The position numbers and the translations under genes are program-made. 64,000 nt of DNA from Deltaproteobacteria bacterium (GTDB lineage Bacteria; Myxococcota; Kuafuiibacteriia; Kuafuiibacteriales; Kuafuiibacteriaceae), in assembly GCA_040218735.1 (NCBI GenBank), contig JAVJQW010000047.1:64001-128000 (forward strand). The letters are read 5' to 3'. Every line of letters starts with the position of its first letter. Positions within the stretch are counted from its first letter, which is position 1. Shown in pieces: positions 4,813 through 21,284 of the stretch. The notes beneath the pieces were generated by a model that worked only from the letters and a program-made list of their open reading frames with translations, had not been told where the DNA came from and ran no database searches.

Positions 4813-6034
4813 CGGGGCGACGGATCCGTACGAGGCGCTCCGCGGGCGGGATTGGATCCGGAGCGTCGAACGACTCCTCGACGATCTCGAACCGGCCGTG
4901 GTCGAAGGGCCGCCCGGGCGCGCGCGCGACCGGGACGAGGCGCTCACGCCGCCCGAGCTTCGCGAGCTGTCGCGCGCGGTAGTGACAGAACGGATTGTTG
5001 CCGGGGCGCCCGAGAATCGCGTGCGCCGTGAACGTGCAACCTCCCTTGCAAACCTCGGCGAAGTCACAGGTACGGCAGAAGCCGTCGAGGTCATCGACCG
5101 AGCGACGGGTGTTGAAGGTCAGCCGGGTGCTCGCCCAGATCTCGGCCAACGATTCCGTGCGGAGGTTGCCGCCGACGTAGTCCGCGCTCTGCAGGGACGG
5201 ACAGCCCTTCACGTCGCCATTCGACTCGATGCCGAGCACGAACATCCCCGCCTGGCACCCCGACCAGTGATCGCGCCCCGTCGAATCGAGCGAACGGAGC
5301 AACGCCTCCTCCGGCCCGAAGTACCCGAGGTTATTGCCGGGCATGATGCGAACGCCATCTTCGAACGCGCGCGCCTTCAGCGACGCGACGCGCGGCAGGA
5401 CGTCGAGGAGATCCCACGGCTGGAGCAACAGGTCCGGACGATCCGCGGCACGCCCCAGCGGCGCCGTGATCTGAATCTGCCAAGCGACGATCCCCGCGGC
5501 GCGCAGCGCGTCGTAGAGCGGCTCGAGATCGGCGCGGTTGAGGCGATTCACGTTGATGTTGGACGCGACCGTGATCCCCGCGGCGCGCAGCGCACGCAGC
5601 GCCGAAAACGCCGCCGCGTAGGAACCGGGTCGACTCCGCATCCGATCGTGCGTCGCCTCCAGACCATCGATGCTCACCGACACCGAGTGCATCCCGGCCT
5701 CGGCCATCGCCGCAGCGAGCTCGGGCGTGATGCCGAGGCCGCCGGTCGTCATCGTCGGCCGAATACCGGCCTCCGCGAGCGCCGCGACGATGTCCAAGAA
5801 ACCTTCGTGGAGGTAGGCCTCACCGCCGATCAACACGACCTCGCGCGCACCCATCTCGGCGAGCTGCCGAACGACGTCGAGCGCCTCGTCGGTCGTCAGC
5901 TCGCCCTCGCGAGCGCGCATCGCACGCGAGCCGCAGTGCGTGCAGGCGTGGTCACACGCGAGCGTGAGCTCCCAGACCACGTAGGCGGGGTGCCGCTCGC
6001 GGACGACGTTCAATCGGCGGTGAGACACGGCCAT
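4802..6034 (-). CDS. Radical SAM/SPASM peptide maturase, TIGR03913/PlpX (splicease)-like
   Basis: VWELTLACDHACTHCGSRA (CxxxCxxC), GGEAY, GNNLGYFGPEE, WSGCQAG...GIESNGDVKGCPSL, SPASM CRTCDFAEVCKGGC...PGNNPFCHYR. ATG 6034 overlaps the upstream TAA. Confidence 0.9.
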   Translation of the reverse strand: MAVSHRRLNVVRERHPAYVVWELTLACDHACTHCGSRAMRAREGELTTDEALDVVRQLAEMGAREVVLIGGEAYLHEGFLDIVAALAEAGIRPTMTTGGLGITPELAAAMAEAGMHSVSVSIDGLEATHDRMRSRPGSYAAAFSALRALRAAGITVASNINVNRLNRADLEPLYDALRAAGIVAWQIQITAPLGRAADRPDLLLQPWDLLDVLPRVASLKARAFEDGVRIMPGNNLGYFGPEEALLRSLDSTGRDHWSGCQAGMFVLGIESNGDVKGCPSLQSADYVGGNLRTESLAEIWASTRLTFNTRRSVDDLDGFCRTCDFAEVCKGGCTFTAHAILGRPGNNPFCHYRARQLAKLGRRERLVPVARAPGRPFDHGRFEIVEESFDAPDPIPPAERLVRIRRPATV

Positions 6035-6420
6035 TACTCCTTCACGCCGTCGACGCCGTCGCAGTTCTGGTCGACCTCGTCGCCTTCGGGATCGTCGGCC
6101 GTGGGATAGACCATCGGATCCATGTCGGCGCAGTCGTCGGGCGTGCAGAAGCCGTCTTCGTCGAGGTCTTCTTCGCCGTCCGGGCACACCGCCGCGGCGA
6201 CGCAGTACGGATCTTCGGTGTCGTCGGGATCGCAGGGCGGGAGGCCGTAGCAGGCCATCAAGGTCATCGCGAGGAGGCCGCCGGTGCCGAGGCCCATGAC
6301 CCGGCGAGCGAGGCGCGGGAGCACGCGGGAGGCGACCGGCGTCGGCGCGCAGTTCGGGCACGCGGCGAGGTGAACAGGGATGAAGCCGTTGCAGTCGGAG
6401 CAGGAGGAGAGGTTCGTCAT
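6034..6420 (-). CDS. Cys-rich lipoprotein with LMAC-YG motif; putative radical SAM substrate
   Basis: N-terminal CSDC...CPNC, hydrophobic stretch, LMAC|YG (C57-Y58-G59), then a DC..D..VYP.A.D...D.VDQNCDG putative metal-binding motif; TAATG coupling to the rSAM. Confidence 0.8.
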   Translation of the reverse strand: MTNLSSCSDCNGFIPVHLAACPNCAPTPVASRVLPRLARRVMGLGTGGLLAMTLMACYGLPPCDPDDTEDPYCVAAAVCPDGEEDLDEDGFCTPDDCADMDPMVYPTADDPEGDEVDQNCDGVDGVKE

Positions 6421-6433
6421 GCGCGTTGCCCAA

Positions 6434-6449
6434 CGCAACGACCGGGCCA
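6434..6449 (-). promoter_or_regulatory. Putative sigma54 -24/-12 promoter (TGGCCCG-GTCG-TTGCG)
   Basis: GG-N10-GC spacing matches the consensus TGGCACG-N4-TTGC; predicted start about 6423, just before ATG 6420. Confidence 0.6.
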
Positions 6450-7812: not shown

Positions 7813-9261
7813 GTGGGAGTGCGTGCGAGTTCGGCGATGGCCGCGAGCCTCTGGGTGCTCGCGAGCCTCGGCTCCGGGTGCCGCCTCAACCCGGACTGCT
7901 TCGGTGAGAACGAATGTGCCAAGGGCCTCGTCTGCGCCCAAGGCGAGTGCACCCACCCCTCACTGCTGCTACCCGAAGCCGGGGTCGACGGCGAGAACGA
8001 CGGCGGCGGCGGCACCACGACCGCGACGTGGTGCGACGTGGAGCCGATCGTCCTGCGGCGCTGCCTCCCCTGCCACAACAACCCCACGTCCAACGGCGCG
8101 CCGGTCTCCCTCGTCGACTACGCCAACACGCAAATGACCGGCACCGGCGGGCTGCTGACCTACGAGACCATGGCGCTCCGCATGGGATCGTCCGTGAGCC
8201 CCATGCCCCCCGCCGTCGCGCCGCCCGCGACCGCGGAGGAGATCGCGATCGTGCAGGCGTGGGCCGACGCCAACGCGCCCGACTGTGCGAACCGCCCGCG
8301 CGACGCCGGTGTGCCGCGCGACGCAGGTGTCGAACCGCCGCGTGACGCCGGACCGCCACGCGACGCCGGGCCGCCGCGCGACGCGGGACCGATGCGCGAC
8401 GCCGGGCCGATCGACCCGCTCTCCGTGATGGGCAACGCCGCCCAGATCGCGCAGATGCAGTTCCTGGACAACGCCGCGGGCGCCGTCTGGTACCCGACGG
8501 ACCAGGTGATGCTGTTCGCGGATCCTCCGCAGAACCTGATCTTCCAAGCGGCCCCGCCGCTGTTCGAGTTCGCGAACTTCCGCACCGGCTCGATGTCGTC
8601 GAACGGGATGGACATCGACCCGGACGGCAACCTGATCGTCACGGAGCTCACCGGGCGCCGCATCGCGCGCCGCGAGGGCGTCGTCTACACGACCGTCGTC
8701 GACAACTACCAGGGGATGCGTCTCAACTCGCCGAACGACGTCGCGGTCCGGTCGGACGGCGTCATCTACTTCACCGACACGCCGTTCGGGACACCCAACC
8801 CCGCCGACCGCGAGATTCCATTCAATGGCGTCTACAGCTACGTGCCGACGGCCACCACCGCGGCGCTCCGCCTCGAGTACCAGGGTGCGTTCAACGCTTC
8901 GACGCCGACCGGCTGCGAGCTGTCGCCCAACGAGGACATCCTGTACGTCACGGACTTCTCGAACGGCGCGTTCTACACGTTCGACGTGCTCCCCAACGGG
9001 CGCCTCGCCAACCAGCAGACCTTCGCCAACGAGCCGCCCCCGGTGGACGGCCTCGCGGTCGACGCGTTCGGCAACATCTACTTCGGCACGTCGATCGGCG
9101 CCGTGGTCTACACCCCCGAGGGGGTCCGACTCGGCACCGTGCCGGGCGTGAATGGCGGCGTGAACCGTGTCGCGTTCGGCGGCGACGGCTATACGACGAT
9201 GTTCCTGATGTCGAGCACACGCATCTACTCGGTGCGTGTGGAGATCGAAGGCGTTCGCTGA
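7813..9261 (+). CDS. Lipoprotein: c-type heme domain + RDAG linker + SMP-30/gluconolactonase propeller
   Basis: Lipobox GSGC, CLPCH heme motif and SPMPP, (P)PRDAG repeats, SNGMDID, LNSPNDVAVRSDGVIYFTD, DGLAVDAFGNIY. Confidence 0.85.
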   Translation: MGVRASSAMAASLWVLASLGSGCRLNPDCFGENECAKGLVCAQGECTHPSLLLPEAGVDGENDGGGGTTTATWCDVEPIVLRRCLPCHNNPTSNGAPVSLVDYANTQMTGTGGLLTYETMALRMGSSVSPMPPAVAPPATAEEIAIVQAWADANAPDCANRPRDAGVPRDAGVEPPRDAGPPRDAGPPRDAGPMRDAGPIDPLSVMGNAAQIAQMQFLDNAAGAVWYPTDQVMLFADPPQNLIFQAAPPLFEFANFRTGSMSSNGMDIDPDGNLIVTELTGRRIARREGVVYTTVVDNYQGMRLNSPNDVAVRSDGVIYFTDTPFGTPNPADREIPFNGVYSYVPTATTAALRLEYQGAFNASTPTGCELSPNEDILYVTDFSNGAFYTFDVLPNGRLANQQTFANEPPPVDGLAVDAFGNIYFGTSIGAVVYTPEGVRLGTVPGVNGGVNRVAFGGDGYTTMFLMSSTRIYSVRVEIEGVR

Positions 9262-10235
9262 TGCGCGGTGAGCGGGTCGGCAGCTTCCGCCTCCACCGTG
9301 ACCTGCACGACGGGCGCGCCGCGCGTTACTCGATCGCGTCGCACGTCGACGAAGGCGACAACCCCGGCGCGTTCGTGGTCGCGCGTTATCACGATCGCGT
9401 CGCCGACGACGACGAGGCGCGAGGTGATCTCGCCGCGGCCTGGGAGGCCCGTCGCGAGCGTGTCACCTCACGGGTCGCGAGCGTCGTGGAGCACGAGGTG
9501 ACGCCCGCGCTCACCTTCGTCGCCACGCGCTACCTCCCGGGGATCGACCTCGCCGCATTCGCTCGAATGGAACGCGAGCAGAAGCGCCGCATCGACGTCC
9601 CGTTCGCGGCGCGCATCGTCGCCGAAGCCGCACGCACGCTGGACGACGTGGGTCAGGCGATCGGCTTCGACGCGATCGACTTCGACGCTCAGAACGTCCG
9701 CCTCGGCTGGGACGGCGCGGTTCGACTGACGCTCCCCGTCACGCTGGCGCTCGGCGTCGACGACTCGACCCCGGCCGCGCCGGATCTCCGGCAGCCTTCC
9801 CCCGAAGGGGTCATCGGTGCGGAGCTCACCGCGCCGTCGCTCGTGTTCCAGCTCGGGCTCGTCCTGTACTGGCTCGTCGAGGGGCGGCACCCGTTCCAGG
9901 GGTCGACGCCGATGGGGACGTTCATGCGGATCGTGGAGGGCCGCCCGGACCCGCTCGCGCACCCCAGCGCGGAGCTCGACGCGATCGTCGGGTGCGCGCT
10001 CCAGCGCGAGCAGATTCGTCGCTTTGCCACGCCGCGTGAAATGGCCGAGGCGATCGAAGCGCAGCTGTCCCCGGCGCCCACCGCGTCCGTGGCCGAGACC
10101 CTCGGCGCGCGTTGCGCGCAGGCGCGCCAGGAGGACCTCGACCTCGACGACGACTTCTCGACGGCCGGGACACAAACCCAGCCGGACCCCGAAGAGCAGA
10201 CCGTCGAGGACGCGGGGCCCGTGTTCCTCGATTAG
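9261..10235 (+). CDS. Degenerate Ser/Thr kinase-like protein (probable pseudokinase)
   Basis: Kinase C-lobe remnants (QNVRLGWDGAVRL, SPE, VFQLGLVLYWLVEGRHPF, RFATPREM) but no GxGxxG, HRD or DFG. Confidence 0.7.
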   Translation: MRGERVGSFRLHRDLHDGRAARYSIASHVDEGDNPGAFVVARYHDRVADDDEARGDLAAAWEARRERVTSRVASVVEHEVTPALTFVATRYLPGIDLAAFARMEREQKRRIDVPFAARIVAEAARTLDDVGQAIGFDAIDFDAQNVRLGWDGAVRLTLPVTLALGVDDSTPAAPDLRQPSPEGVIGAELTAPSLVFQLGLVLYWLVEGRHPFQGSTPMGTFMRIVEGRPDPLAHPSAELDAIVGCALQREQIRRFATPREMAEAIEAQLSPAPTASVAETLGARCAQARQEDLDLDDDFSTAGTQTQPDPEEQTVEDAGPVFLD

Positions 10236-10260: not shown

Positions 10261-11547
10261 ATGATGTTGTCCTTGGTCCTCGGTGCGGCGATCGCCGCGT
10301 CCCCTACGGCCGACCTCTCGAAGATTCAGTGGATGCACGACGACGCGCCCGGCGCGTTCGCGAAGGCGAAGAAGGCGAAGCAGCTCGTCGCCGTCGATGT
10401 GTGGGGGACGTGGTGTCACACGTGCCTGATGATGCAGAACTTCGCGTTGAAGGAGCGGCCGATGGCGAAGGTCGCGAACAAGCTCGTGTTCCTCGCGATG
10501 GAGTACGAGTCGGACAAGAACACCGACTTCTTCGCGAAGTTCCCGATCAACGCGTTCCCGACGTTCCTGGTGATCGACCCGAAGACCGAGAAGGTCGTCG
10601 CGCGCTGGGTGGGGTCCGGGACGTCCGAGCAGATGGCGGAGTTCTTCGCGACCGCGGACCCGAGCGACGATCGACCGTCGGTGCGGGCGCAGCGACTGAT
10701 CGCGAAGCGCAGCTACGCCGAGGCGATCGAGATCCTGGAGGGTGCGCTCGCGAAGGCCTCGGCGACGGAGCGGAACGCGCTCTACCCGCCGTACATCGAG
10801 GCGCTCTGGAAACACGACACGAAGGCCTGCGCGACCAAGGGCGCCGAGCACCTGGATCGATTCGACGATCGCACCGCGGCGGGGATCGATTCTATGCTGC
10901 TGCTCAGCTACTGCGCGACGGCGCTCGAAGATCCCAAGCCGCTCTACGGTCGGCTCGCGAAGCGCCTCGCGACGGTCGCCGCCAAACCTCCGAAGTCCTT
11001 GGAGGCGGACGAGGTCGCGGGAGTGATGCTCGGGCTCGCCGACGTCTACGACGCGCTCGGGGAGAAGAAGAACGGTGACGCCGCCGCGAAGAGGGCCGCG
11101 ACAGTGCTGGAGCAGGCGGCGAAGCGCGCGCCGTCGATCGCGGTGCGCACGACGTACGACTACCACCGGCTCCTCGCGTACGTGCGCCTCGGCCGTCACG
11201 CGGAGGCGCTGAAGATGCTGACCGCGTCCGAGAAAGCGCAGCCGGACGACTTCAACCACCCGCACCGCATCGCGTACCTGTACCTCGAGCTGGGCAAGAC
11301 GAAGGAGGGCCTCGCGGCGATCGATCGTGCGCTGAAGATCGGGTACGGCGGGCGGCGGCTGCGGCTGCACGCGACGAAGATCGATCTGCTCCTGAAGGCG
11401 AACCGCCTGACGGAGGCGCAGGCTCAGGTCGACGCCGCGAAGAAGGAGCTGGCTTCGATGAACCCCGCCAACACACGTCAGGGGTGGATCGACATGCTCG
11501 AGGCGCGCGCGAAGAAGGTCGAAGCGCAGCTCAAAAGCAGGGGATGA
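10261..11547 (+). CDS. Exported thioredoxin-like (WCHTC) + TPR protein
   Basis: Signal peptide, VDVWGTWCHTC, FPTFLVID, followed by helical TPR-like repeats. Confidence 0.8.
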   Translation: MMLSLVLGAAIAASPTADLSKIQWMHDDAPGAFAKAKKAKQLVAVDVWGTWCHTCLMMQNFALKERPMAKVANKLVFLAMEYESDKNTDFFAKFPINAFPTFLVIDPKTEKVVARWVGSGTSEQMAEFFATADPSDDRPSVRAQRLIAKRSYAEAIEILEGALAKASATERNALYPPYIEALWKHDTKACATKGAEHLDRFDDRTAAGIDSMLLLSYCATALEDPKPLYGRLAKRLATVAAKPPKSLEADEVAGVMLGLADVYDALGEKKNGDAAAKRAATVLEQAAKRAPSIAVRTTYDYHRLLAYVRLGRHAEALKMLTASEKAQPDDFNHPHRIAYLYLELGKTKEGLAAIDRALKIGYGGRRLRLHATKIDLLLKANRLTEAQAQVDAAKKELASMNPANTRQGWIDMLEARAKKVEAQLKSRG

Positions 11548-12406
11548 GCCCCTTCTTCGGGAAGTAGTAGCCGAAGACAAAACACATCTCGTCGGCGGCC
11601 GAGGGCCCGTACTCGACGGTGAAGTCGTCGGCGTTGTCGTACGTGCACTCGAAGCGGACGACGTCACCGTTGGTCACGGGGATGGGGTCGTCGAAGAACT
11701 CGACCTCCGGGTCGTCCCAGCGATCGTTCGAATAGACCTGATCGGACTGACCGTCGCGAATCACCTGCGTGGTGGCGAGGACACCGCGCTGGTGAAAGTG
11801 TGATGACATCGAGAGCAGACCGATCGTGTCGCGGATCGTGCAGTCTTTCTGGATGGTGGTGCGTTCGTTGGGCGGGAGCGTGATCTCGAGCGTCGTGAAC
11901 CCGTAGAGGTCGACGTGGGTCCGCGCCGGCGCCTCGGCGGTGTGCAGATTGAGCGCGAACTGCTGCTCGGCCGGCGCGTCGGTCACGTTGATCCAGTGCA
12001 GCTGCATGATGATGAGGGTGTTCGGCGGGAGCGGGAACGCCATCCCGTCCGGGAAGCGGTAGTCGACCGCGCCCGACGAGCCGTCGACGATCGGGCGCGC
12101 GCCCACGAAGAGCTCGAACTCGTCGGGGCACGGACCGAAGCCATCCTCGCGCTCGAGATCCGACATGAAGATGTTGAAGTGGTGCTGCCCGGGGCGCTGG
12201 TTCGTCTGGAAGCGAACGACCTCCAGCTCCTCGGCGTTGTTCATGTTGAGGTGGTAGCAGCGCGTGCGCTCCTGCCCCGCGTCGAGGACGAAGGGCTCGG
12301 AGAGGAGCTGCACCCCGCGCTCGGGGGGTTCGAGCAGGCCGTCGTAGCCGGCGACGCCGCTGCCGCACGCCGACAGGAGGGCGACGGCGAAGATGCTGAC
12401 TCTCAT
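11531..12406 (-). CDS. Copper type II ascorbate-dependent monooxygenase (PHM-like) lipoprotein
   Basis: ATG 12406 MRVSIFAVALLSAC; HH (GQHHFN), QLHW, SHFH and DEMC copper-ligand pattern. Confidence 0.8.
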   Translation of the reverse strand: MRVSIFAVALLSACGSGVAGYDGLLEPPERGVQLLSEPFVLDAGQERTRCYHLNMNNAEELEVVRFQTNQRPGQHHFNIFMSDLEREDGFGPCPDEFELFVGARPIVDGSSGAVDYRFPDGMAFPLPPNTLIIMQLHWINVTDAPAEQQFALNLHTAEAPARTHVDLYGFTTLEITLPPNERTTIQKDCTIRDTIGLLSMSSHFHQRGVLATTQVIRDGQSDQVYSNDRWDDPEVEFFDDPIPVTNGDVVRFECTYDNADDFTVEYGPSAADEMCFVFGYYFPKKGLIPCF

Positions 12407-12752
12407 GCGAAGCGACACTGCAGACTCGAAGCCAACCGTGAAAGCTGTCGTCTTGGGAAGGTGGGGCGACGATTCGGCCCAACTCGGGCGGCCCGAATCG
12501 CGCGGCGTTGACAGTTCGTAAGCTGTACAGACTTGCCCACACCCTGTTGCCTCTTGCCCTCGGGGGCGTCGTAGCACCGCTGACTTCAGCGGCGCACAGC
12601 GGGGTTCGGTTGTAGTCCGCGCGCGCAGTGCCGTCGCCGCGCACGCTTGTCCACGAGTTCCCACATGTTGGGACGATCGCGATTTTGTTGCGTCTTCCTC
12701 GTTCAGCGCCGAACGCGACGCGCGGTTCAGGACGAGGGATCCGCACATCGGG

Positions 12753-12768
12753 TGGCACGTCCGTTGCG
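12753..12768 (+). promoter_or_regulatory. Sigma54 -24/-12 promoter of the RiPP operon (TGGCACG-TCCG-TTGCG)
   Basis: Near-perfect consensus with GG at 12754-55 and GC at 12766-67; predicted start about 12779; RBS AGGAG at 12823-27. Confidence 0.75.
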
Positions 12769-12833
12769 ATGTTCGTGCGTTCGACACCGAGCGCCGCGGG
12801 AGATGCGGCGTTCTCAAACGATAGGAGATCGAA

Positions 12834-13094
12834 ATGAAAGCACCGACCGTCAACGCGCGCGCGATCGACACTTGCGCGTCGTCCATGAACGCCGCGACGG
12901 CCCGTCCCGAGTTCGATGCCAAGGGCATCGAGACCTGTGCCTCGTCGTCCAATGCGCCGAGTGAGGCCGTGGCGAAAGCCGAGCCCGACTTCGAGCGTCA
13001 GCCCATCTCGACCTGCGCGTCGTCGATGTCTGCGCCCGGACAGATGGACTCGTTCACCACGGCGGCCGCGCGCACGCCGAACAAGTTCGTCTGA
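12834..13094 (+). CDS. Putative RiPP precursor with three I-x-T-C-A-S-S cassettes
   Basis: Strong RBS; IDTCASS, IETCASS, ISTCASS (Cys14, 35, 61) each with Pro at -10; directly upstream of RRE and two rSAM genes. Confidence 0.85.
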   Translation: MKAPTVNARAIDTCASSMNAATARPEFDAKGIETCASSSNAPSEAVAKAEPDFERQPISTCASSMSAPGQMDSFTTAAARTPNKFV

Positions 13095-13102
13095 GCTTGG
13101 AC

Positions 13103-13145
13103 ACGTCCCCGCGGGTCGGCCACGGCCGCCCGCGGGGCGTCTTTT
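13103..13145 (+). terminator. GC-rich hairpin + short T-tract between precursor and maturase genes
   Basis: ACG-T-CCCCGCGGG-T-CGGC / CACG / GCCG-CCCGCGGGG-CGT followed by CTTTT. Confidence 0.6.
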
Positions 13146-13162
13146 CGGAAAGGTCACAGGTC

Positions 13163-13678
13163 ATGCACGAACGAAGAACACCCCGGCTGATGCGCCACGT
13201 CCGCCTCCGCAAACGCGAGCCCGTCGCCTACGACGGGAAGAAGCGAACGATCTACGAGCTCAACGACGTCGCCGCCGCCATGTTGCGGCTCGCCGACGGC
13301 AAGAACGACGTCGACGTGATCGCCGAGGCGGTCGAGAGCGACGCCGAAACGGTCCGTGCCTTCATGGACGACTGCGCGGCGGCCGAGTTCGTCGAGTGGC
13401 TCGACGGCGACGCCGCGACCTACCGCGTGCCCGAGCTGGAGAAGGGCTTCCGGCTCCGCAGGAACGAGCCGATCGGGTACTCGGGGCAACAGTCGGCGAT
13501 CTTCAAGCTGAACCCGACCGCCTACGAGATCCTGCAGCAGGTCGACGGCGAGCGAGACGAAATGCAGATCGCGATTCGCTGCACGAGCGAGGAACAGGGC
13601 GGCGCCTACCTGGCGACGTGCCGACGGTTCCTGGAGCGCTGCGCTTCGGAAGGGATGGTCCGATGGAAGACCGCCTGA
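13163..13678 (+). CDS. Tandem PqqD-family / RiPP recognition element (RRE) protein
   Basis: Two copies of the PqqD pattern: YELNDVAAAMLRLADGKNDVDVIAEAV..VRAFMDDC and FKLNPTAYEILQQVDGERDEMQIA..CRRFLERCASEGMV. Confidence 0.8.
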   Translation: MHERRTPRLMRHVRLRKREPVAYDGKKRTIYELNDVAAAMLRLADGKNDVDVIAEAVESDAETVRAFMDDCAAAEFVEWLDGDAATYRVPELEKGFRLRRNEPIGYSGQQSAIFKLNPTAYEILQQVDGERDEMQIAIRCTSEEQGGAYLATCRRFLERCASEGMVRWKTA

Positions 13679-14619
13679 ACCTGTACGGCACGCCGCACCG
13701 CCTGCGCGACGACGAGCTGCTCGACGAGCTCACTTCTCCCTACTTCGCGACGTGGTACTGCACACGTCGCTGCAACCTGTCTTGCGCGCACTGCTTCGTC
13801 GACGTCACGTCGGGCGGGCGCGACCCGATCGACACCGAGACCGCGATGCACATGATCGATGGGCTCGTCGAAAACGACGTCTACCAGCTGGGCTTCGCCG
13901 GCGGAGAGCCGTTCCTTCGGCCGGACTTCTACACACTCGCGGCGTACGCGCGGGACCAGGGCCTGACGATCCAGGTCGCGACGAACGGCCTCTTCCTCGG
14001 CGACGAGCCGGTGGAGCGGCTCCTGGACGTGGGCTTTCGGTGCATCCAGATCAGCCTCGATGGCGCGACCGCGGCGAGCCACGACGTGCTGCGCGGCGCC
14101 GGTCGATTCGACGCGGCCCTCGAGGGCGTTCGCGCTGCGGTGCGCAAAGAGCTCCCGGTGGTGCTCGCGATCGCGGTGCACCGCGGGAACCTCGACGAGG
14201 TCGAAGCGATGGTCGACCTCGCGGAGCGCGAGGCGGCGATCATCCTGAAGGTGCAGCCGGTGTTCACGTCCTTCGCGTGGCGCGGCGAGGACGGCGCGCT
14301 GACGCCGGACGAGGTGCGCGACGTGGTCGCGCGGGCGCGTCGGCGAGCCCGGAGCGTAGAGCTGTCGATCCCACGGTGGGCGCAGATCCTCGAGGATCGC
14401 TCCGGCGAGCGCACCTGCGCGTCGACGCTCCGCAACGTGTCGATCCTCGACGACGGCCGGCTCTCCCTGTGTGACTTCGGTCCGGAGCACGCCTTCGGCG
14501 ACGTCACGCGGAACGACTTCTTCGACGAGTGGCGCCAGGTCGTGTCCCAGCACCACCTGCGGCAGCGGTGCGGGTGCACGCGGTACCTCGAAGCGGAACA
14601 GAAGGAGGTGGCGGCATGA
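13663..14619 (+). CDS. Radical SAM protein with truncated SPASM (twitch-like) domain
   Basis: TRRCNLSCAHC, AGGEPF, ATNG, QISLDG; C-terminal C..ILDDGRLSLC and RCGC only; overlaps RRE gene by 16 nt. Confidence 0.9.
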   Translation: MEDRLNLYGTPHRLRDDELLDELTSPYFATWYCTRRCNLSCAHCFVDVTSGGRDPIDTETAMHMIDGLVENDVYQLGFAGGEPFLRPDFYTLAAYARDQGLTIQVATNGLFLGDEPVERLLDVGFRCIQISLDGATAASHDVLRGAGRFDAALEGVRAAVRKELPVVLAIAVHRGNLDEVEAMVDLAEREAAIILKVQPVFTSFAWRGEDGALTPDEVRDVVARARRRARSVELSIPRWAQILEDRSGERTCASTLRNVSILDDGRLSLCDFGPEHAFGDVTRNDFFDEWRQVVSQHHLRQRCGCTRYLEAEQKEVAA

Positions 14620-15743
14620 ACCCGATCGCGCCCTACTCGGTCACCTGGTACATCACCAAGCGCTGCAACCTGACTTGCACGCACTGCTTCAACTACGAGC
14701 CCTGGGAGACACCGCGACGCGCGGACGAGGAGCTCGACTTCGACGACGCCAAGGCGATCGTCGACCAGCTCGCCGACGCGGGGGTGTTCAGCCTCGCGTT
14801 CGGCGGCGGCGAGCCGCTGACGCTCCCGTGGTTCGTCGACCTCATCGAATACTGCGACCAGGCTGGCATCGACACCTTCCTGTCGACGAACGGTGCGCTC
14901 CTCGATCGGCGAAAGGTCGAGCGCCTCGCGGCCGCCAACGTCACCGTCGTGCAACTCAGCCTCGACGGCGCGACGAAGGCGACCCACGACGCCATCCGCG
15001 GCCCTCGGAACTTCGACCACGTGATGCGCGCTGCCGGGCTGCTCGAGGAGCTGGGCATCGACGTGCAGTTCGCCTTCACGCTGATGAAGACGAACCAGGA
15101 CGAGATCGACGACCTCCTCGACCTCTGCATCGAACAGCGCGTCCCGATGCTGAAGCTCCAGCTGTTCCTCCCCACCGGACGTGCCGCGGAGGACCGCGCG
15201 CTCACCGTGCCCCCGGAGCAGTTTCGTGCGATCGTCGACAAGGTGAAGGCGTTCGAGCGCGCGTCCGGCGGCAAGCTCGCCGTCGACTACCCCTGCTTCA
15301 CCGGGCACATGGACGGCCTCGCGGAGTCCAACTGGCGCCTGGGCGAGAAGGCCACGAAGCTCTCGTGCGGCGCCGGCACCACCCGCGCCGTGATCTTCGA
15401 AGACGGCTCCGTCGGCACCTGCGAGTTCATGCGCGACGACAGCGCTTCCGACCTGCGCAAGGAGTCGTTCCTCGACGTGTGGCACGGCGGCCACGACGCC
15501 ATCGAACGCTGGCGGCGCCTGAACCTCGTCCACGGCAAGTGCGGCTCGTGCGGGTACCAGTCGGAGTGCGGCTACGGCTGCCGCGCCAACGCGTACTTCG
15601 CGGGCGGCGACTTCTACGGCGACGACCCGTCGTGCATCGCATCGCCCCCCGAGGGCGTCGAACACCCGTACTACGCAAAACAACGCGCCGTCCGAGCACC
15701 GCCGAACGGCCTCGTCCAAATCGGAGGGCTCGCCGCCCCGTGA
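14616..15743 (+). CDS. Radical SAM/SPASM protein
   Basis: TKRCNLTCTHC, GGGEPL, STNG, QLSLDG; full SPASM CGAG..IFEDGSVGTC..CGSCGYQSECGYGCRA..DDPSC; ATGA overlap with the previous gene. Confidence 0.92.
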   Translation: MNPIAPYSVTWYITKRCNLTCTHCFNYEPWETPRRADEELDFDDAKAIVDQLADAGVFSLAFGGGEPLTLPWFVDLIEYCDQAGIDTFLSTNGALLDRRKVERLAAANVTVVQLSLDGATKATHDAIRGPRNFDHVMRAAGLLEELGIDVQFAFTLMKTNQDEIDDLLDLCIEQRVPMLKLQLFLPTGRAAEDRALTVPPEQFRAIVDKVKAFERASGGKLAVDYPCFTGHMDGLAESNWRLGEKATKLSCGAGTTRAVIFEDGSVGTCEFMRDDSASDLRKESFLDVWHGGHDAIERWRRLNLVHGKCGSCGYQSECGYGCRANAYFAGGDFYGDDPSCIASPPEGVEHPYYAKQRAVRAPPNGLVQIGGLAAP

Positions 15744-16288
15744 TCCGAATCGACGACGGCGACCTCGTCCTCCGCAGCCCGACGCTCGACGACGCCCCGG
15801 TCATCTTCGCGGCGGTCGACGCCGACCGGGCACGGCTGCGCCGATGGCTGCCGTGGGTCGACCTCACGAAGACCCCCGACGACACCCGCGCGTTCGTGGA
15901 GCGGAGCCTCGCCGGGCTCGAAGCCGGCACCGCGATGGACCTGGTCCTCCTTCACGACGGCGCGTTCGCCGGGCTCGCCTCGCTCGTCGACATCTCGTCC
16001 GCGAACCGCCGCGCGATGATCGGCTACTGGATCTCGAGCGGCCGCGAAGGGCGCGGCCTCGTCACCCGGGCGGTGCAGCGGCTCCTCGCCCACGGCTTCG
16101 ACACCCTCGGCCTCGAACGCATCGGCCTGTACGCGGCGACCGACAACACACGCAGCCGCGCCGTCGCGGAGCGCTGCGGCCTCACGTTGGAGGGCGTGCT
16201 GCGCCACCACGAATTCGTCGACGACCGCTTCGTCGACCACGCCGTCTACGCGATCCTCGCCGAGGAGTGGCGCGATGCTCGGGGCTGA
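15740..16288 (+). CDS. RimJ/RimL-family GNAT N-acetyltransferase
   Basis: LRRWLPW, IGYWI..GRGLVT, NTRSRAVAERCG..EGVLR..D..VYAIL; GTGA overlap. Confidence 0.88.
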   Translation: MIRIDDGDLVLRSPTLDDAPVIFAAVDADRARLRRWLPWVDLTKTPDDTRAFVERSLAGLEAGTAMDLVLLHDGAFAGLASLVDISSANRRAMIGYWISSGREGRGLVTRAVQRLLAHGFDTLGLERIGLYAATDNTRSRAVAERCGLTLEGVLRHHEFVDDRFVDHAVYAILAEEWRDARG

Positions 16289-17639
16289 TCGGGTCGAGAC
16301 GATCCGCGCCGCGCACGCGCTCTCCGAGCACCGCGCCGAACGCCCCGCGCGCGCCCCCGCGCCACAGGACTGGTCGACGTGTGTCCCGCCGCTACACTTC
16401 CCCGGCGCGGAGCTGCTCCCGGCGACCGCGCGCCACCGAAACATCTCCGTCGCCGACACCCTCGCCGGGCGCTGCCCGCAAGCGCCGATCGACATCGGAA
16501 CGATCGCCCTGCGCACCCTCGGCGTGACGGTCGAACGGCGCCGCGGCTCGAGTCGCTGGTTCTGCCACGCCAACCCGTCGAGCGGGAACCTCCACCCCAC
16601 CGAGCTGTACGTCCTCGACGGTCGCGACGTCCTGCATTTCGCAGCGCGCGAAGGCGCGTTCGCGCGCATCGGCCGCCTCGAAGACGAAGCCCCCACGACG
16701 TTCGTCCTCACGCAGATCGCCGAGCGCCAGTGCTGGAAGTACGGCGACCGCGGCGTGCGCTACGCCGAGCTGGACCTCGGGCACGCCGTCGCGGGGCTGC
16801 GTCTCGCCGCCGCGAGTCACGGGCACGAACTGAGACCGATCGACGGCCTCTTCCTACGCGATGTCCTGGGACTCGACGGTCGCGAAGGCGAGACGATCGG
16901 CGCTGCGTTCACGACGGGGGCGCTCGACGCGATCACCGTCGAGCATCTCCTCCCCGCGTCGAAGCTGCGTGGCTTCGACTGGCCCGGCGCACGGAGCACG
17001 GCGCGCGCGATCGAACGTGCGCCGTTCACGACCTCGCGCGGGCACGCCCCTTCGGTCCGGATCGACGGTGACTTCGACGCGGTCGTCACCGCACGCCGCA
17101 GCGCCGCCGCTTTCGCCGACGCGCCGATCTCCCGCGACACCTTCGACCGCCTCCTGGAGTCCACGCTCGGGGGCAGCGCCTTCCTCGGGGCGGCGTCGGT
17201 CGACCTCCTCCTCTTCGTCCACCGCGTCGAAGGCCTCACGCCCGGCGCCTACCTCTTCCGTCGCAGCGACGCCGATCACTCGAACGCCTTCGACCCCGAC
17301 TTCGGCTACACCCCGGTCGGACCGCGACTGTACCGGCTCGACGAAGACGACGTCCGCGCCCACGCCCGCGCGGTGCACGTCGACCAAGCGGTCGCGAGCG
17401 ACGGCGCGTTCTGCCTGACGATGCTCGCGCCGCTCGACGAAACCCTCGCGACCGAAGGCGCCGGCGCCTACCGACGCCTCCACCTCGAAGCCGGCGCGAT
17501 CGGCCACGTGCTCTACCTCGGAGCGACCGCCCTCGGCCTCGGCGCCACGGGCATCGGCGCGTTCTACGACGTCGCGTTGAAACAGATGCTCGGGACCGAG
17601 CTCACGCCGCTGTACGGCTTCGCGGTGGGTGCGACCTGA
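16275..17639 (+). CDS. SagB/ThcOx-family FMN dehydrogenase (two nitroreductase-like domains)
   Basis: NPSSGNLHPTELY, WKYGDRGVRYAELDLGH, RRS, AYRRLHLEAGAIGHVLYL..GATGIGAFYD; 14-nt overlap with GNAT. Confidence 0.85.
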   Translation: MLGADRVETIRAAHALSEHRAERPARAPAPQDWSTCVPPLHFPGAELLPATARHRNISVADTLAGRCPQAPIDIGTIALRTLGVTVERRRGSSRWFCHANPSSGNLHPTELYVLDGRDVLHFAAREGAFARIGRLEDEAPTTFVLTQIAERQCWKYGDRGVRYAELDLGHAVAGLRLAAASHGHELRPIDGLFLRDVLGLDGREGETIGAAFTTGALDAITVEHLLPASKLRGFDWPGARSTARAIERAPFTTSRGHAPSVRIDGDFDAVVTARRSAAAFADAPISRDTFDRLLESTLGGSAFLGAASVDLLLFVHRVEGLTPGAYLFRRSDADHSNAFDPDFGYTPVGPRLYRLDEDDVRAHARAVHVDQAVASDGAFCLTMLAPLDETLATEGAGAYRRLHLEAGAIGHVLYLGATALGLGATGIGAFYDVALKQMLGTELTPLYGFAVGAT

Positions 17640-17646
17640 GGTCGGC

Positions 17647-18042
17647 TCAACGACCGTTGCCGGTGTCGTTCCCCGAGTCGCGCACCCCGGCGTCCGGGCA
17701 GCCCGTGCCCCACGCCGCGAGGACCATGTTCAGGTCGCGCACGTCGACGACGCCGTCTTCGTTGGCGTCGCCTTCGGGCCCTGGCTCGCCCCACAGCTCC
17801 TGCACGAGATCGAGATCCACGCTGTCGACGCAGCCGTCGCTGTTGATGTCCGCGGCGTGGGACGGCCCGCCATCGCGGCGCGCGAACCCGCCGTCACGTG
17901 TGCCCGCATCGAGGAACCCCGCGTCGACTTCGTTGCCCGCGTCGCGCGCTTCGTCGAGCTCCTCGATTCGAGGATCCGGCTCGAGCACGATCGGCCCGCA
18001 CCCGGCCGTGAAGAGCAGCGCGACGATCAGAGCTCGAACCAC
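17647..18042 (-). CDS. Lipoprotein with one dockerin-like (paired EF-hand) module
   Basis: Lipobox TAGC, DAG linker, ADINSDGCVDSVDL..WG and GDANEDGVVDVRDLNMVLAAWGTGC. Confidence 0.75.
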   Translation of the reverse strand: MVRALIVALLFTAGCGPIVLEPDPRIEELDEARDAGNEVDAGFLDAGTRDGGFARRDGGPSHAADINSDGCVDSVDLDLVQELWGEPGPEGDANEDGVVDVRDLNMVLAAWGTGCPDAGVRDSGNDTGNGR

Positions 18043-18794
18043 TTCGTGAGCTCCTGCGCACGCGCGGTGCCGGGTTGGCGCGCGACGAGCTCGCGCGCAA
18101 TGACACGTCCGCGCTCCACACGATTCATGCGCGCGTAGCAGACGGCGAGGTAGTAGAGCGCTTCTTCTTGCAGGACCCCGCGAGGGAACGTGCGCCGGTA
18201 GCGCTCCAGCAGCTGCGCGGCGCGCTGCAGGTCTTCGCCCGCCGCGACGAGTGGAACGGCCTCCGAGATCCACGCCTCGCCTTCACTCGCGTCTTCGGGG
18301 AGACATCGCGTCGCGGACTGGCCCGCGGTCAGGAGCACAGCGTCGTAGCCCTCCGCTTCGACGCGCACCATGCCGTGGCGAACTTCGACGTCGGTGCAGA
18401 GTCCTTCGGTCTGCACTGTGAAACCCGTGCCGACGACCTCCACCAGCGCGGACGGTGTCCGCACGCGGAAGGGCGAGCGGTGCTTGCGCTTCGGCACCTC
18501 GAAGCTCGCCCGACCGCGCGCGAGGTAGAGCTCGGTCGCGACGGCGTCGTCGCGTTCGACGGTCAGCTCGCTTCCCGGGGCCTCTTCGATCGTGGGCGCC
18601 ACCGCGACCGGCGCTGCGACGCGCGGCGCGGGCACGAGCTGCCAGCACACCACGGCGGCCGCCATGGCGGTGGCGAGACCGAGCACCAGCGGCCCCGACC
18701 GCCGACGACGACGGGCGTGGATGCGTTCGAGGGAGCCGCGCACGATTCGGTCATGCACGTCGGGGCGCGGCGCGAGGCGAGCGAGGTGCCTCAT
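18027..18794 (-). CDS. FecR-domain anti-sigma factor with C-terminal TPR
   Basis: Single TM, LARGRASFEV..FRVRT..VEVVGTGFTV..VEVRHGMVRV (FecR), YRRTFPRGVLQEEA. Confidence 0.82.
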   Translation of the reverse strand: MRHLARLAPRPDVHDRIVRGSLERIHARRRRRSGPLVLGLATAMAAAVVCWQLVPAPRVAAPVAVAPTIEEAPGSELTVERDDAVATELYLARGRASFEVPKRKHRSPFRVRTPSALVEVVGTGFTVQTEGLCTDVEVRHGMVRVEAEGYDAVLLTAGQSATRCLPEDASEGEAWISEAVPLVAAGEDLQRAAQLLERYRRTFPRGVLQEEALYYLAVCYARMNRVERGRVIARELVARQPGTARAQELTKWFEL

Positions 18795-19336
18795 GCGCCC
18801 GACTCCAGCTCCGCGATCCCGTTCGTGGGCCGATACGCCGCGCGGAACGCTTCACGCGCGCGGCGCAGCCTGCTCGCGACGGCGGGCTCGGCGAGGCCGA
18901 GGATCTGTGCGGCTTCGCGACGCGTGAACCCTTCGATGTCCATGAGCACGAGCACCTCGACGTGCCGTATCGGCAGGCGCTCCAAGACCGCGCGGACCTC
19001 GAGATCGTCGTCGATGTTCTGTCCGGCGAGCGACGGGACGGTGCTCTCGTCCTCCAGGAAGAAGACACGTTTGCACCACGCGAGCCGACGACGGTTCGCC
19101 GCGTGCCTTCGGGCGATCTGGTACAGCCAGGACCCGAGCACTTCGTCGCAGCTGCAGGTGTGGATTCGCGCGGCGGCGGTGGCCAGAACATCCTGCACGG
19201 CGTCCTCCGCGTCTCGCGAGGAGAGGCCCAGCAGGACGCACCACCGGTACACGGCGCTCGCCCACGCATCGACCAATCGTCGCCAAGCCCACGCTTCGTC
19301 GGCCTGGCAGCCCTCCACCAAAGACATCGGTTTCAC
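18791..19336 (-). CDS. ECF sigma-70 factor
   Basis: DAEDAVQDV, SWLYQIARR, EVLVLMDIEGFTRREAAQILG..VASRLRRAR; GTG 19336 overlaps the upstream TGA. Confidence 0.88.
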   Translation of the reverse strand: MKPMSLVEGCQADEAWAWRRLVDAWASAVYRWCVLLGLSSRDAEDAVQDVLATAAARIHTCSCDEVLGSWLYQIARRHAANRRRLAWCKRVFFLEDESTVPSLAGQNIDDDLEVRAVLERLPIRHVEVLVLMDIEGFTRREAAQILGLAEPAVASRLRRAREAFRAAYRPTNGIAELESGA

Positions 19337-20400
19337 GGTGCTGATGTCTCCGTGCGGCGGTTCTGATCCTCGCCCCGCTCGATTTTCGTCGCCGAACCGA
19401 AGAACGACCACGCGACCTGCAGGCCGACGCGCGCGCCCCAGCGGTTCACCCGCGCCGAGGGGCCATCCGGGATGACGATGTCCCGTGCGGTGGGGAAGAC
19501 GAGCCCTTCGGCGAAGAGCGCGATCGCGAGCGCGTCGGCCCGGACCGTCGCCCCGACGCCCGCGACGCCTCCGATATCCACCGACGTGTGGTCGGCGGCG
19601 TCCGCGATGTCGTCCCGCGTGACGCGCAGCGTCTCGGCGCTGAGGCCGGCGCTCCAGGCGAGCTCGACGTAGCGACCCAGCTCGACCCCTCCGCGATACC
19701 CACCGGTCGCGCCGAACGCCGCGAGCCGGATCGGTCGGCCGTCGAGCGCCCACGTCGCCGTCGGCGCCCCGCTCGCCCGAACGAACCAGCCGTCGCGGGA
19801 GAGCTCGGCGGCGAGCTCCCACGTCGCGACGCCGGGCGTGCGGTAACGCAGCCAGGACTGCACGCCGACCGCGTAGCGCGACTGCGCCCACTGCGGCGCA
19901 CGAACGGCGCTGGCGACCGCGCGGGTCTGCGGATGGATCGGCGGCCACGGAGGCGTCGGCGCCGGCTCGGACTCGGGCGCGACCTCGACGACGGGCGCGG
20001 GTCGACGACGACGACGTTTCGCGGGGCGCGGCGCGACGGGCATCGACGCGACGGAGGGAGGCGGGAGGAGACCGGCGACCGGCTCGAGCGCGAGCGCTTC
20101 GATCATCACGGACAGCTCCGACAGCCGCCCCTGCCCCGCCGCCGAGCGCAGCGGTCCTTCGGGATCCAGGCGCCACGGGAGCTTCCGCCGGCGCGCTGTG
20201 CCGTCGGGTCGTTCGAAGGTCAGCGTCGTCGCGGTGATTCGAATCCGCGCGACCCCCTCGCCGCACCGCGGGTCGATCCGAAGCGTTCGAAGATAGCGCC
20301 CGAGCCGCTCCAAGACGGGAGCGGGGGCCCGCTCCTCGACACACACGCGCGTGTCGAGCGCGGCGCCGAGGAGCAGAGGAACGAGGAGCAGCGGGCCCAC
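19333..20400 (-). CDS. Hypothetical exported protein with Pro-rich linker and beta-rich C-terminus
   Basis: Signal peptide; alternating beta strands ending GARVGLQVAWSFF; first gene of the ECF operon. Confidence 0.65.
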   Translation of the reverse strand: MGPLLLVPLLLGAALDTRVCVEERAPAPVLERLGRYLRTLRIDPRCGEGVARIRITATTLTFERPDGTARRRKLPWRLDPEGPLRSAAGQGRLSELSVMIEALALEPVAGLLPPPSVASMPVAPRPAKRRRRRPAPVVEVAPESEPAPTPPWPPIHPQTRAVASAVRAPQWAQSRYAVGVQSWLRYRTPGVATWELAAELSRDGWFVRASGAPTATWALDGRPIRLAAFGATGGYRGGVELGRYVELAWSAGLSAETLRVTRDDIADAADHTSVDIGGVAGVGATVRADALAIALFAEGLVFPTARDIVIPDGPSARVNRWGARVGLQVAWSFFGSATKIERGEDQNRRTETSAP

Positions 20401-20503: not shown

Positions 20504-21157
20504 TCAGCTGCAGCCCCGACCCCACGCGGCGAGGAGGATGTTGAGATCGACGGTGTCGACCGTGCCGTCCCCGTTGATGTCGCCGGCGCCGGAGCCGCCC
20601 CAGTTCGCGAGGAGGCCGTCGAGGTCGTCTTCGTCGACGCAGCCGTCGCCGTTCAGGTCCGGAGTCCCGCTCGCGAGGCATCCGGTGCCCCAGTTCGCGA
20701 GGACGATGTTCAGGTCCTGCACATTCACCGTGCCGTCTCCGTTGATGTCCGCCGGGTCCGGCGTCGTGCCCGTCGAGACACCCCACGCCGCGATGACGGC
20801 GTCGAGGTCGTCCTGGTCGACGCACCCGTCGCCGTTCACGTCGCCGTAGACGCCACAACCGGTGCCCCAGTTCGCGAGGACGATGTTCAAATCCTGCACG
20901 TCCACGGTGCCGTTGCCGTCGATGTCTTCGGCGAGGTTGCGACCGGTCGCGCCCCACGCCGCGAGGACCGCGTCGAGGTCGTCTTGATCGACGCAGCCGT
21001 CTCCGGTCGCGTCGCCGCGGACACCGGCGCTGGTGCCCGTGGAGACCTCGGACTCGGAGGTCTCCACGGCGGAGGTCTCGTTGCCCACCGGGCCGCCGCA
21101 CGCGATCAAGAGGAAGGTGAGCGCGCTCGAGGCGCACGTGTGCACTGCTTTGTTCAT
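20504..21157 (-). CDS. Lipoprotein with three dockerin-like modules (six DxxGDGxVDxxDL..AWG loops)
   Basis: RBS GGGAG; lipobox LIAC; six EF-hand-like loops alternating GCVD and GTV(D/N) types. Confidence 0.85.
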   Translation of the reverse strand: MNKAVHTCASSALTFLLIACGGPVGNETSAVETSESEVSTGTSAGVRGDATGDGCVDQDDLDAVLAAWGATGRNLAEDIDGNGTVDVQDLNIVLANWGTGCGVYGDVNGDGCVDQDDLDAVIAAWGVSTGTTPDPADINGDGTVNVQDLNIVLANWGTGCLASGTPDLNGDGCVDEDDLDGLLANWGGSGAGDINGDGTVDTVDLNILLAAWGRGCS

Positions 21158-21284
21158 TTCATGGCTCCCTAAGAGATGGATTGGGAGGCGCCTTGCCTCT
21201 CCTGGGGGTGCCAATGTGATGAGGACGCGGAGTTGATCCGCGGCGCGTGAAAAAAGTCAGCTTTCGGGGAGCTCGGACCGACCG

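Follow-up and report, generated by a model that had tools for sequence, protein, structure and literature searches.

The stretch considered here, called the window throughout, comprises 64,000 nucleotides (nt) from a Deltaproteobacteria bacterium assigned to the Myxococcota (assembly GCA_040218735.1, contig JAVJQW010000047.1, positions 64,001 to 128,000). It has a GC content of 69.5% and comes from an 11.6-Mb genome in 70 contigs (G000, the contig being C28). On its plus strand, at 12834-17639, lies a cassette of six genes, about 4.9 kb in all, which with a probability of around 70% is a self-contained pathway for the maturation of a peptide that is synthesized by ribosomes and modified after translation (RiPP). 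By analogy with known systems, radical S-adenosylmethionine (rSAM) enzymes guided by a RiPP recognition element (RRE) would carry out chemistry centered on the cysteines of a small precursor peptide, after which a flavin mononucleotide (FMN) enzyme would dehydrogenate the product and an acetyltransferase would N-acetylate it. The more general frame, in which the peptide is the substrate and RRE-guided radical chemistry takes place at its Cys motif, we hold with greater confidence still.

The first gene encodes the 86-amino-acid precursor (12834-13094) and has an AGGAG 6 nt 5' of its ATG. It is followed by genes for a stand-alone tandem RRE protein with two PqqD-like domains (171 amino acids, 13163-13678); rSAM1, a radical SAM enzyme whose C-terminal Cys cluster is truncated and twitch-like (318 amino acids, 13663-14619); rSAM2, a radical SAM/SPASM enzyme (375 amino acids, 14616-15743); a GNAT N-acetyltransferase of the RimJ/RimL/MccE type (182 amino acids, 15740-16288); and a tandem nitroreductase-fold FMN oxidoreductase of the SagB/ThcOx type (454 amino acids, 16275-17639). 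Start codons were chosen to agree with the N termini of the orthologs. The maturation genes overlap one another, by 16 nt between the RRE and rSAM1 genes, by ATGA between those of rSAM1 and rSAM2, by GTGA between those of rSAM2 and the GNAT, and by 14 nt between the last two. A preliminary description of this DNA had proposed six co-oriented genes with four such overlaps, a PqqD/RRE, radical SAM, GNAT, and SagB-like gene set, and an RRE-guided rSAM RiPP as their product. The overlaps are exactly as it gave them, the gene set is recovered by Pfam and NCBIfam (release 20) models scored against their own cut-offs, and the overall reading is supported.

A congener (genome G108, locus L084) and a member of a different family of the phylum (genome G066, locus L085) carry these six genes as well, and the order is kept in all three retrievable loci, at protein identities of 29 to 60% between the window and L085. 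In that comparison the precursor is 46% identical, the RRE protein 37%, rSAM1 52%, rSAM2 about 60 to 61%, the GNAT 37%, and the SagB-like protein 29%; rSAM2 of the window and of L084 share 85%. The L085 genes, which overlap or abut, lie in DNA of about 50% GC, versus 69% in the window. It had been proposed that close rSAM homologs with no TCASS-like neighbor would speak against the system, but L084 and L085 each have a three-repeat precursor.

A precursor with three cysteine units

The precursor has exactly three Cys residues (C14, C35, and C61), each of which sits in the pattern I-[D/E/S]-T-C-A-S-S (IDTCASS, IETCASS, and ISTCASS, respectively), an earlier claim that translation bears out. The heptapeptides belong to a longer repeat unit, P-x-[F/V]-x-x-[R/K/Q]-x-I-x-x-C-A-S-S, found at residues 4 to 17, 25 to 38, and 51 to 64 (12843-12884, 12906-12947, and 12984-13025 on the plus strand). 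Because the first unit begins at residue 4, there is no classical leader. The peptide lacks Tyr, ends in ...NKFV, and matches no Pfam or NCBIfam model; its ESM Atlas model is disordered, with a predicted local distance difference test (pLDDT) value of 0.24, and a feature search of that atlas gave no usable match. A six-frame translation of the genome (23.2 million residues) contains 27 instances of I..CASS, three of them in the precursor open reading frame (ORF) and the other 24 as scattered singletons. Since the other 24 are so scattered, the triple occurrence is not due to chance and the gene is the only one of its kind in the genome. A dockerin/EF-hand protein of the window (20507-21214, minus strand) has one H-T-C-A-S-S in its N-terminal region, which was judged coincidental.

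Is the motif maintained as a peptide sequence? The three-unit architecture is the same in all three precursors, and I-x-x-C-A-S-S is unchanged in each of their nine repeats. Across these repeats the codons of the invariant residues vary, with ATC, ATT, and ATA for Ile; TGC and TGT for Cys; GCG, GCC, GCT, and GCA for Ala; and TCG, TCA, TCC, and TCT for Ser. Invariant residues despite differing codons therefore speak directly for selection on the peptide sequence, and the alignment indicates that it is the Cys motif that is under selection at this level. A hidden Markov model (HMM) built from the three precursors and run on 1.84 billion representative proteins returned four matches. P0121 is a precursor of the window type that differs at S39T and S59A, outside the invariant positions; P0123 is of the L085 type; and P0125 is a further peptide with two PQF-x-SRNI-x-TCASS units. 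The fourth, P0124, is a repeat protein without Cys and was rejected as spurious. P0121 and P0125 add five more repeats in which I-x-x-C-A-S-S is unchanged. A word-index search with the precursor gave two matches. The L085 precursor (2004-2447 of that locus) also carries a Lys-rich C-terminal tail with KDVQH-type repeats, the number of which differs between the L085 record and P0123 (147 versus 127 amino acids), while their three Cys units are identical.

Variation between strains offers a second view of the precursor. The stretch is present in contigs of 21 sequencing runs from nine studies, labeled as sponge, aquaculture, biofloc, and biofilm metagenomes, and two of these runs may be the source of the assembly itself. 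Contigs of four public runs were compared over 12600-13700, which yielded one strain of 97% identity. In this strain the precursor gene has a single change in 261 nt, a synonymous one at Cys61. Over the 516 nt of the RRE gene there are 21, of which 17 are synonymous, with three residue changes, and the spacer upstream of the precursor has 7 in 187 nt (Fisher test of the precursor versus the rest, p = 0.0016). The precursor gene is unusually quiet even at synonymous sites, which could reflect constraint at the RNA level or chance.

The C-A-S-S core also invites comparison with methanobactins, for which Kenney and Rosenzweig report that C(G|A|S)(S|T) marks the heterocycle/thioamide Cys of all MbnA cores, as in RCASTCAA (PMC3621798). 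The same source supplies the likeness of a Cys followed by a small residue and Ser or Thr, for example CAST, and C-A-S-S fits the pattern. One alternative to a thioether product builds on this fit. An rSAM enzyme would oxidatively cyclize each Cys with the preceding carbonyl to an azoline-type ring (a thio-oxazoline or a related ring), which the SagB-type enzyme would aromatize; the product would be three N,S-ligand heterocycles on a metal-binding peptide, an oxygen-independent counterpart of methanobactin and bufferin chemistry. We consider this unlikely. The likeness extends over four residues only, and a convergent preference for small residues is possible. The cassette further differs from methanobactin loci in that the contig has no MbnB/MbnC gene (PF05114), the leader architecture is another one, and an MbnT-type transporter is missing. 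The motif of that family is present while an adjacent gene for a multinuclear nonheme iron-dependent oxidative enzyme (MNIO) is not, and the cassette does not belong to the methanobactin/MNIO group.

The recognition protein and the radical SAM pair

The product of 13163-13678 matches Pfam PqqD (PF05402) over two stretches, with 46.9 bits against a cut-off of 23.4. It is an internal duplication, residues 5 to 86 and 86 to 171 matching each other at 36 to 40% across species. In an AlphaFold (AF2) model with a pLDDT of 87, made from only 3 rows, each half consists of strands followed by three helices. Single-domain matches found with Foldseek include the lasso peptide protein B1 (6jx3_B, TMt 0.72), TbiB1 (5v1v, 0.65), and PqqD (5sxy, 0.53, 28% identity), all with a probability of 1.00 yet with E values above 0.001. 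PqqD-like RREs are defined by a match to the PqqD family and a winged-helix fold with a three-stranded sheet; on its sequence and model, the protein qualifies as one, and peptide binding is predicted for it. A complex prediction with the precursor scored 0.21 against a mark of 0.32, which says nothing either way.

Both of the next two proteins are radical SAM enzymes (PF04055; 84.7 bits for rSAM1 and 102.7 bits for rSAM2, with a cut-off of 29.5), and CX3CX2C is invariant in the alignments of each. The SPASM motif consists of seven Cys, CX9-15GX4C ... CX2CX5CX3C ... C. Beyond CX3CX2C, rSAM2 has C251-X12-G264-X4-C269, C309/C312/C318/C322 (C-X2-C-X5-C-X3-C), and C340, plus C227, and all 17 members of the family keep the seven-Cys pattern unchanged. 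The Pfam SPASM model scores window rSAM2 at 21.4 against a cut-off of 21.5 and the L085 ortholog at 22.5. By its Cys pattern, rSAM2 may be placed in the SPASM subfamily. In the alignment of the two proteins, rSAM1 has only C252, C270, C303, and C305 in its C-terminal part, and neither of the two rSAM1 orthologs scanned matches Pfam SPASM. Its pattern, short of the seven Cys, identifies it as a twitch-like remnant. The cassette had been described as having two rSAM-SPASM enzymes, which is half right, because rSAM1 ends after four Cys; the term holds for rSAM2 and its full pattern. The two are paralogs. The nearest solved relatives of rSAM2 are PqqE (6c8v, 1.5e-20), SkfB, CteB, and BlsE, and those of rSAM1 are SkfB, PqqE in second place, and then BlsE, so that for both they include the peptide-modifying PqqE and SkfB and, for rSAM2, CteB.

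To which known family do they belong? Neither reaches the cut-off of any NCBIfam equivalog model. For rSAM2 the best scores are with AhbD (TIGR04545, 181.5 versus 500) and the NirJ-type model TIGR04055 (NirJ2, 175.1 versus 500), with MftC third (TIGR03962, 166.6 versus 265), and lower ones are with TIGR04051, also NirJ type (143.7 versus 515), PqqE (TIGR02109, 124.2 versus 381), SbtM (TIGR04082, 85 versus 350), and TIGR03913 (77 versus 592). None of the sactipeptide and ranthipeptide models was passed (StsB, 99.8 versus 625; SkfB, 66.8 versus 300 for rSAM1). A quick IQ-TREE tree of 73 rows was drawn from window rSAM2, three rSAM1 orthologs, P0002 to P0017, P0021 to P0069, and five source-named proteins; the last two sets were limited to 300 to 480 residues, and P0001 (98% identical to the window protein) and the fragments P0018 to P0020 were omitted. 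The 17 rSAM2-family rows form one clade, with a Shimodaira-Hasegawa-like approximate likelihood ratio test (SH-aLRT) value of 99, to which rSAM1 is sister (91). MftC forms a separate clade (99), and AhbD and NirJ fall elsewhere, these names being source annotations. In this tree, rSAM2 and its family are a clade of their own, apart from the proteins named MftC, AhbD, and NirJ. Placement of the rSAMs in known cofactor clades had been set as a second finding that would count against a new system; the separate clade and scores far below the AhbD, NirJ2, MftC, and PqqE cut-offs were found instead.

These matches bear on two further alternatives. The enzymes might act on a nonpeptide substrate, such as the tetrapyrroles of AhbD and NirJ, with the small ORF being incidental or regulatory. 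Heme-pathway enzymes are indeed the top NCBIfam matches of both rSAMs, but at about one third of the cut-offs. An RRE protein has no role in tetrapyrrole pathways, and the ORF has an invariant motif under synonymous change, a strong Shine-Dalgarno sequence, and first place in all three cassettes, which makes this explanation very improbable.

The other alternative is a peptide-derived cofactor of the pyrroloquinoline quinone (PQQ) or mycofactocin type, a small redox-active molecule that would be cut from each repeat and used inside the cell. The cassette resembles the systems for mycofactocin (MftA/B/C) and PQQ (PqqA/D/E) in its stand-alone PqqD-type chaperone, its rSAM-SPASM enzyme, its small peptide, and the lack of a dedicated exporter. 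The rSAM-SPASM enzyme that accompanies this discrete chaperone scores best on the AhbD, NirJ2, and MftC models and has PqqE as its best solved relative, no exporter or protease is conserved, and in mycofactocin synthesis an FMN enzyme likewise acts after the rSAM. PqqA, however, is marked by E-x3-Y and MftA ends in Val-Tyr, and the precursor has neither; it offers three Cys repeats instead of Glu/Tyr or Val-Tyr sites, and the cassette includes no peptidase. It is also very rare: a family seen in 3 of 401 genomes of its phylum, 2 of 20 of its class, and 0 of 401 of a second phylum is unlike a cofactor with dependent enzymes. By its scores and its position in the tree, rSAM2 appears to be neither an MftC nor a PqqE, since it stays under both equivalog cut-offs and its clade is separate from the source-named MftC clade. 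Taken together, we regard a cofactor as improbable, though less so than a nonpeptide substrate.

The downstream enzymes and the proposed chemistry

The last gene product scores 80.1 bits on Pfam Nitroreductase and passes the SagB domain model TIGR03605 (86.4 versus 78.4). Its AF2 model (pLDDT 89, predicted template modeling score 0.92) aligns with the tandem nitroreductase 3eo7 along its entire length (E 1e-24), while half-length, one-lobe matches are with azoline oxidases (the thiazoline oxidase BmdC, ThcOx, and McbC) and with a C-alpha/C-beta dehydrogenase, the cyclodipeptide oxidase AlbAB. From the models, the best guess is that it uses FMN to dehydrogenate a ring or a C-alpha/C-beta bond in a two-electron reaction. 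Only four tight orthologs came from a profile search, namely, the window protein, those of the L084 and L085 types, and one at 85%. The GNAT scores 97.1 bits on Acetyltransf_3 and 83.9 on PRK10151 RimL, below that equivalog's cut-off of 184. Its solved relatives are 1nsl (4e-24), MccE (3r95, 1.6e-21, second best), and RimL (1s7k), so that it shares a GNAT subfamily with RimL and the C-terminal domain of MccE. MccE confers self-immunity by acetylating a processed peptide antibiotic at an amino group.

The SagB-like fold brings back the azoline rings proposed above. The best half-length matches of the protein are azoline oxidases (BmdC, ThcOx, and McbC), and an aromatized ring explains the presence of this gene better than a thioether does. 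The thiazole/oxazole-modified microcin (TOMM), cyanobactin, and nonribosomal peptide synthetase azoline dehydrogenases (SagB, McbC, ThcOx, and BmdC) share with it the nitroreductase fold, the FMN dependence, and the TIGR03605 match. In contrast to TOMM loci, which combine a YcaO cyclodehydratase with a SagB dehydrogenase, the six genes of the window and of L085 include no YcaO gene, the only one in the genome lying on another contig, and the cassette is not a TOMM cluster; its tandem 3eo7 architecture is that of thousands of proteins not linked to RiPPs. An MNIO gene (PF05114) is likewise lacking on contig C28, the two PF05114 matches of the genome being on contigs C59 and C60. Because the contig has neither YcaO nor MNIO, ring making would fall to the rSAMs. 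An rSAM step and an FMN step of two electrons each would add up to the required four. NCBIfam includes a thio-oxazole-making rSAM, SbtM, with which rSAM2 scores 85 bits, and a Cu2_monoox-domain gene lies upstream in the genus. That score is far under the SbtM cut-off, however, conservation of the cassette does not extend to any transporter, TonB receptor, or metal regulator, and the need for two rSAMs is left without explanation. A wider form of this idea, in which radical SAM enzymes provide an oxygen-independent route to the N,S-chelating heterocycles that MNIO enzymes make aerobically and so supply a metal-binding peptide in microoxic marine niches, is somewhat less likely again.

How, then, might the cassette work? 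We return to the pathway proposed at the outset, in which each of the three units would combine a stretch for recognition (P-x-F-x-x-R/K-x-I) with a site for modification (C-A-S-S). Five steps can be envisaged. (i) The tandem RRE would bind the repeats and hand them to rSAM1 and rSAM2. (ii) rSAM2, with its full SPASM domain and two auxiliary clusters, would ligate the Cys thiol to an auxiliary cluster and abstract a hydrogen from a conserved neighbor; the invariant Ile at -3 would be the prime candidate, by analogy with the N-x-x-C beta-thioether of NxxcB, and a small thioether ring would result at each of the three sites. (iii) The twitch-like rSAM1 would carry out a second radical step on the same motif. 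(iv) The SagB-type FMN enzyme would take two more electrons, with either the new ring or a C-alpha/C-beta bond as their source. (v) The RimL/MccE-like GNAT would acetylate a free amino group, as tailoring or for self-protection. To our knowledge, nearly all RRE-dependent SPASM enzymes that act on Cys peptides make thioethers. Within the general frame, a thioether is accordingly the leading candidate for the first step, at somewhat less than even odds; a Cys-derived heterocycle, also argued by analogy, is possible but doubtful, and some other chemistry is doubtful to the same degree.

A thioether to position -3 is favored because NxxcB forms just such a link in N-x-x-C, between Cys and position -3, and can use other acceptors as well (PMC9389541). 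This enzyme and those of sactipeptides and ranthipeptides (AlbA, SkfB, CteB, and PapB) are, like the present pair, rSAMs equipped with auxiliary clusters and directed at a short Cys motif, and the acceptor position reported for NxxC is the one occupied by the invariant Ile here (PMC9389541). The cassette differs from all of these in its discrete rather than fused RRE, which is a tandem one, its two paralogous rSAMs, its thrice-repeated leaderless motif, and the presence of a SagB-type oxidoreductase and a GNAT. Several motif copies per precursor, each modified by an rSAM-SPASM enzyme, are also reported for the poly-cyclopropylglycine type (TigB/TvgA, TIGR03913) (PMC10878394), but those systems have another motif, another target residue, and another enzyme clade.

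Several observations weigh against the proposed pathway. The residues at -1 and -2 of the motif Cys vary, and the motif has no conserved acidic or Thr acceptor of the ranthipeptide type. Family support consists of three independent loci and two extra peptide sequences only, and no RNA run is among the sequencing runs found to contain the stretch. We know of no role for a SagB-type enzyme in thioether peptides. Beyond the four tight orthologs, this enzyme has thousands of stand-alone relatives of 520 to 550 amino acids, labeled SagB/ThcOx family, at 31 to 36% identity. One paralog in the same genome (G000:C42:225500-227005; 8444-10012 of locus L089, minus strand), of 523 amino acids and 34% identity, adjoins an RNase R-like gene and other housekeeping-type genes and passes TIGR03605 as well (85.9 bits). 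Because a paralog in a housekeeping context passes too, a TIGR03605 match is not proof of a RiPP role. Stand-alone tandem nitroreductases of the paralog's kind make up a very large family. Finally, the chemistry assigned to the cassette is drawn from analogy only.

Distribution, control, and meaning

The cassette is very rare and its distribution patchy. When 5.8 billion proteins were searched with rSAM2, 193 matches emerged among 5,842 candidates; the first 20 have at least 45% identity (E no higher than 5e-63), followed by a drop to 36% and 2.5e-46. Relatives at 45 to 57% identity are P0004 to P0017, one of which has the NCBI accession MEO8181622.1. Of 401 genomes sampled across the phylum, 3 have the rSAM2 family (G000, G108, and G066); it occurs in 2 of 20 in the class of G000, in 1 of 22 in that of G066, and in none of 401 genomes of Thermodesulfobacteriota, only four candidates being scored per genome. 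In a scan of genome contigs with the rSAM2 alignment, run with generic rSAM/SPASM patterns, the 80 loci retained have no more than 34% identity and were set aside as irrelevant; the family is in none of five genomes behind these loci. A family-specific, 69-nt degenerate pattern that recovers each of the three true loci without picking up any of those 80 had no match in metagenome contigs. A triple C-A-S-S DNA pattern found at least 120 loci there, with the P-x-F-x-x-R-x-I-x-x-CASS unit in none of the matches listed, among which the in-frame multiple matches were dismissed as tandem DNA repeats or chance.

What surrounds the six genes changes from locus to locus. In the window they are flanked upstream by genes for Cu2_monoox-domain and thioredoxin/TPR proteins (10261-12400) and downstream by a dockerin-like gene, FecR, and an extracytoplasmic function (ECF) sigma factor (17650-19390). 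Of these neighbors, L084 has only the two upstream genes, and L085 is flanked by genes for an ion channel, a HAD hydrolase, and a Kazal-domain protein. Because the flanking genes differ, the conserved unit is exactly six genes. FecR and the ECF sigma factor (window only) and the Cu2_monoox and thioredoxin genes (genus only) were considered as members of the cassette and rejected as not conserved, so that the metal-related character of the neighborhood does not travel with the six genes. No protease and no exporter or transporter is conserved beside it in the three loci, in agreement with the earlier remark that none is adjacent.

In this genus, expression probably starts from a sigma-54 promoter. 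The -24/-12 element TGGCAC-N5-TTGC (TGGCACgtccgTTGC, 12753-12767, plus strand), 67 nt 5' of the precursor ATG, is an exact match and has the GG-N10-GC layout of such promoters. Taken alone it is weak evidence, because chance would produce the core GGCAC-N5-TTGC 0.46 times per window. The congener L084, however, has GGCAC-N5-TTGC (CGGCACgcgcgTTGC) at the same distance from the ATG in differing surroundings, and in the 97%-identical strain substitutions fall at 12746, 12770, 12771, and 12774 but none within the element. The genome has one rpoN and 90 genes for sigma-54 activators (PF00158), the nearest being at approximately 28880-29371 of the window, about 11 kb away. No comparable element was found in L085. 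The consensus promoter of the preliminary description is therefore supported within the genus and not in the distant locus; from these sequences a sigma-54 promoter, from which the operon would be read, is likely in this genus but is not a defining part of the system. A single rpoN with 90 activator genes amounts to an unusually large repertoire of enhancer-binding proteins.

Immediately 3' of the precursor stop codon, at 13107-13145 on the plus strand, a GC-rich stem-loop is followed by UCUUUU. It folds with -40.7 kcal/mol (z, -3.9; none of 200 shuffles folds as well), and a terminator scan picks up part of it. Hairpins stand at the same position in L084 (-35.4) and, with a different sequence, in L085 (-21.6), that is, in all three loci. 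A hairpin between the precursor and the enzyme genes is a common arrangement in RiPP operons. This one is a candidate attenuator or mRNA-stabilizing hairpin and would raise the ratio of precursor to enzyme transcript.

The window may possibly hold a second RiPP-type locus, at 4805-6449. An unrelated rSAM-SPASM gene (4805-6034, minus strand), 7 kb upstream of the cassette, scores 476 against 725 on TIGR04103 (nif11-class maturase 3) and 400 against 592 on TIGR03913 (GDL-motif/TigE type). It is preceded by a Cys-rich ORF of 128 amino acids (6037-6420, minus strand) with no family match, ahead of which lies a sigma-54-like site with one mismatch, TGGCCCggtcgTTGC (6435-6449, minus strand).

Overall, what sets the cassette apart is a combination. 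Maturation of peptides by RRE-guided rSAMs is already known, while this set of features was found described nowhere: a leaderless precursor of three units, each with recognition and core parts of its own; a stand-alone tandem RRE; a pair of SPASM and twitch paralogs in a separate clade; and a SagB-type enzyme without a cyclodehydratase. No description of the motif or enzyme set was found in the literature, large genome-mining supplementary tables not being covered, and as no NCBIfam equivalog was passed, the earlier view that they belong to no described class holds. By its sequence relationships, the cassette would be an RRE-dependent rSAM RiPP system outside the sactipeptide, ranthipeptide, mycofactocin, PQQ, TOMM, and methanobactin families. 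If expressed, it should yield at least one new peptide modification and would reveal the part that a SagB-type enzyme plays after radical chemistry. The family is small, six genes in all, and its invariant I-x-x-C-A-S-S unit is a compact, synthesizable substrate for enzymology.

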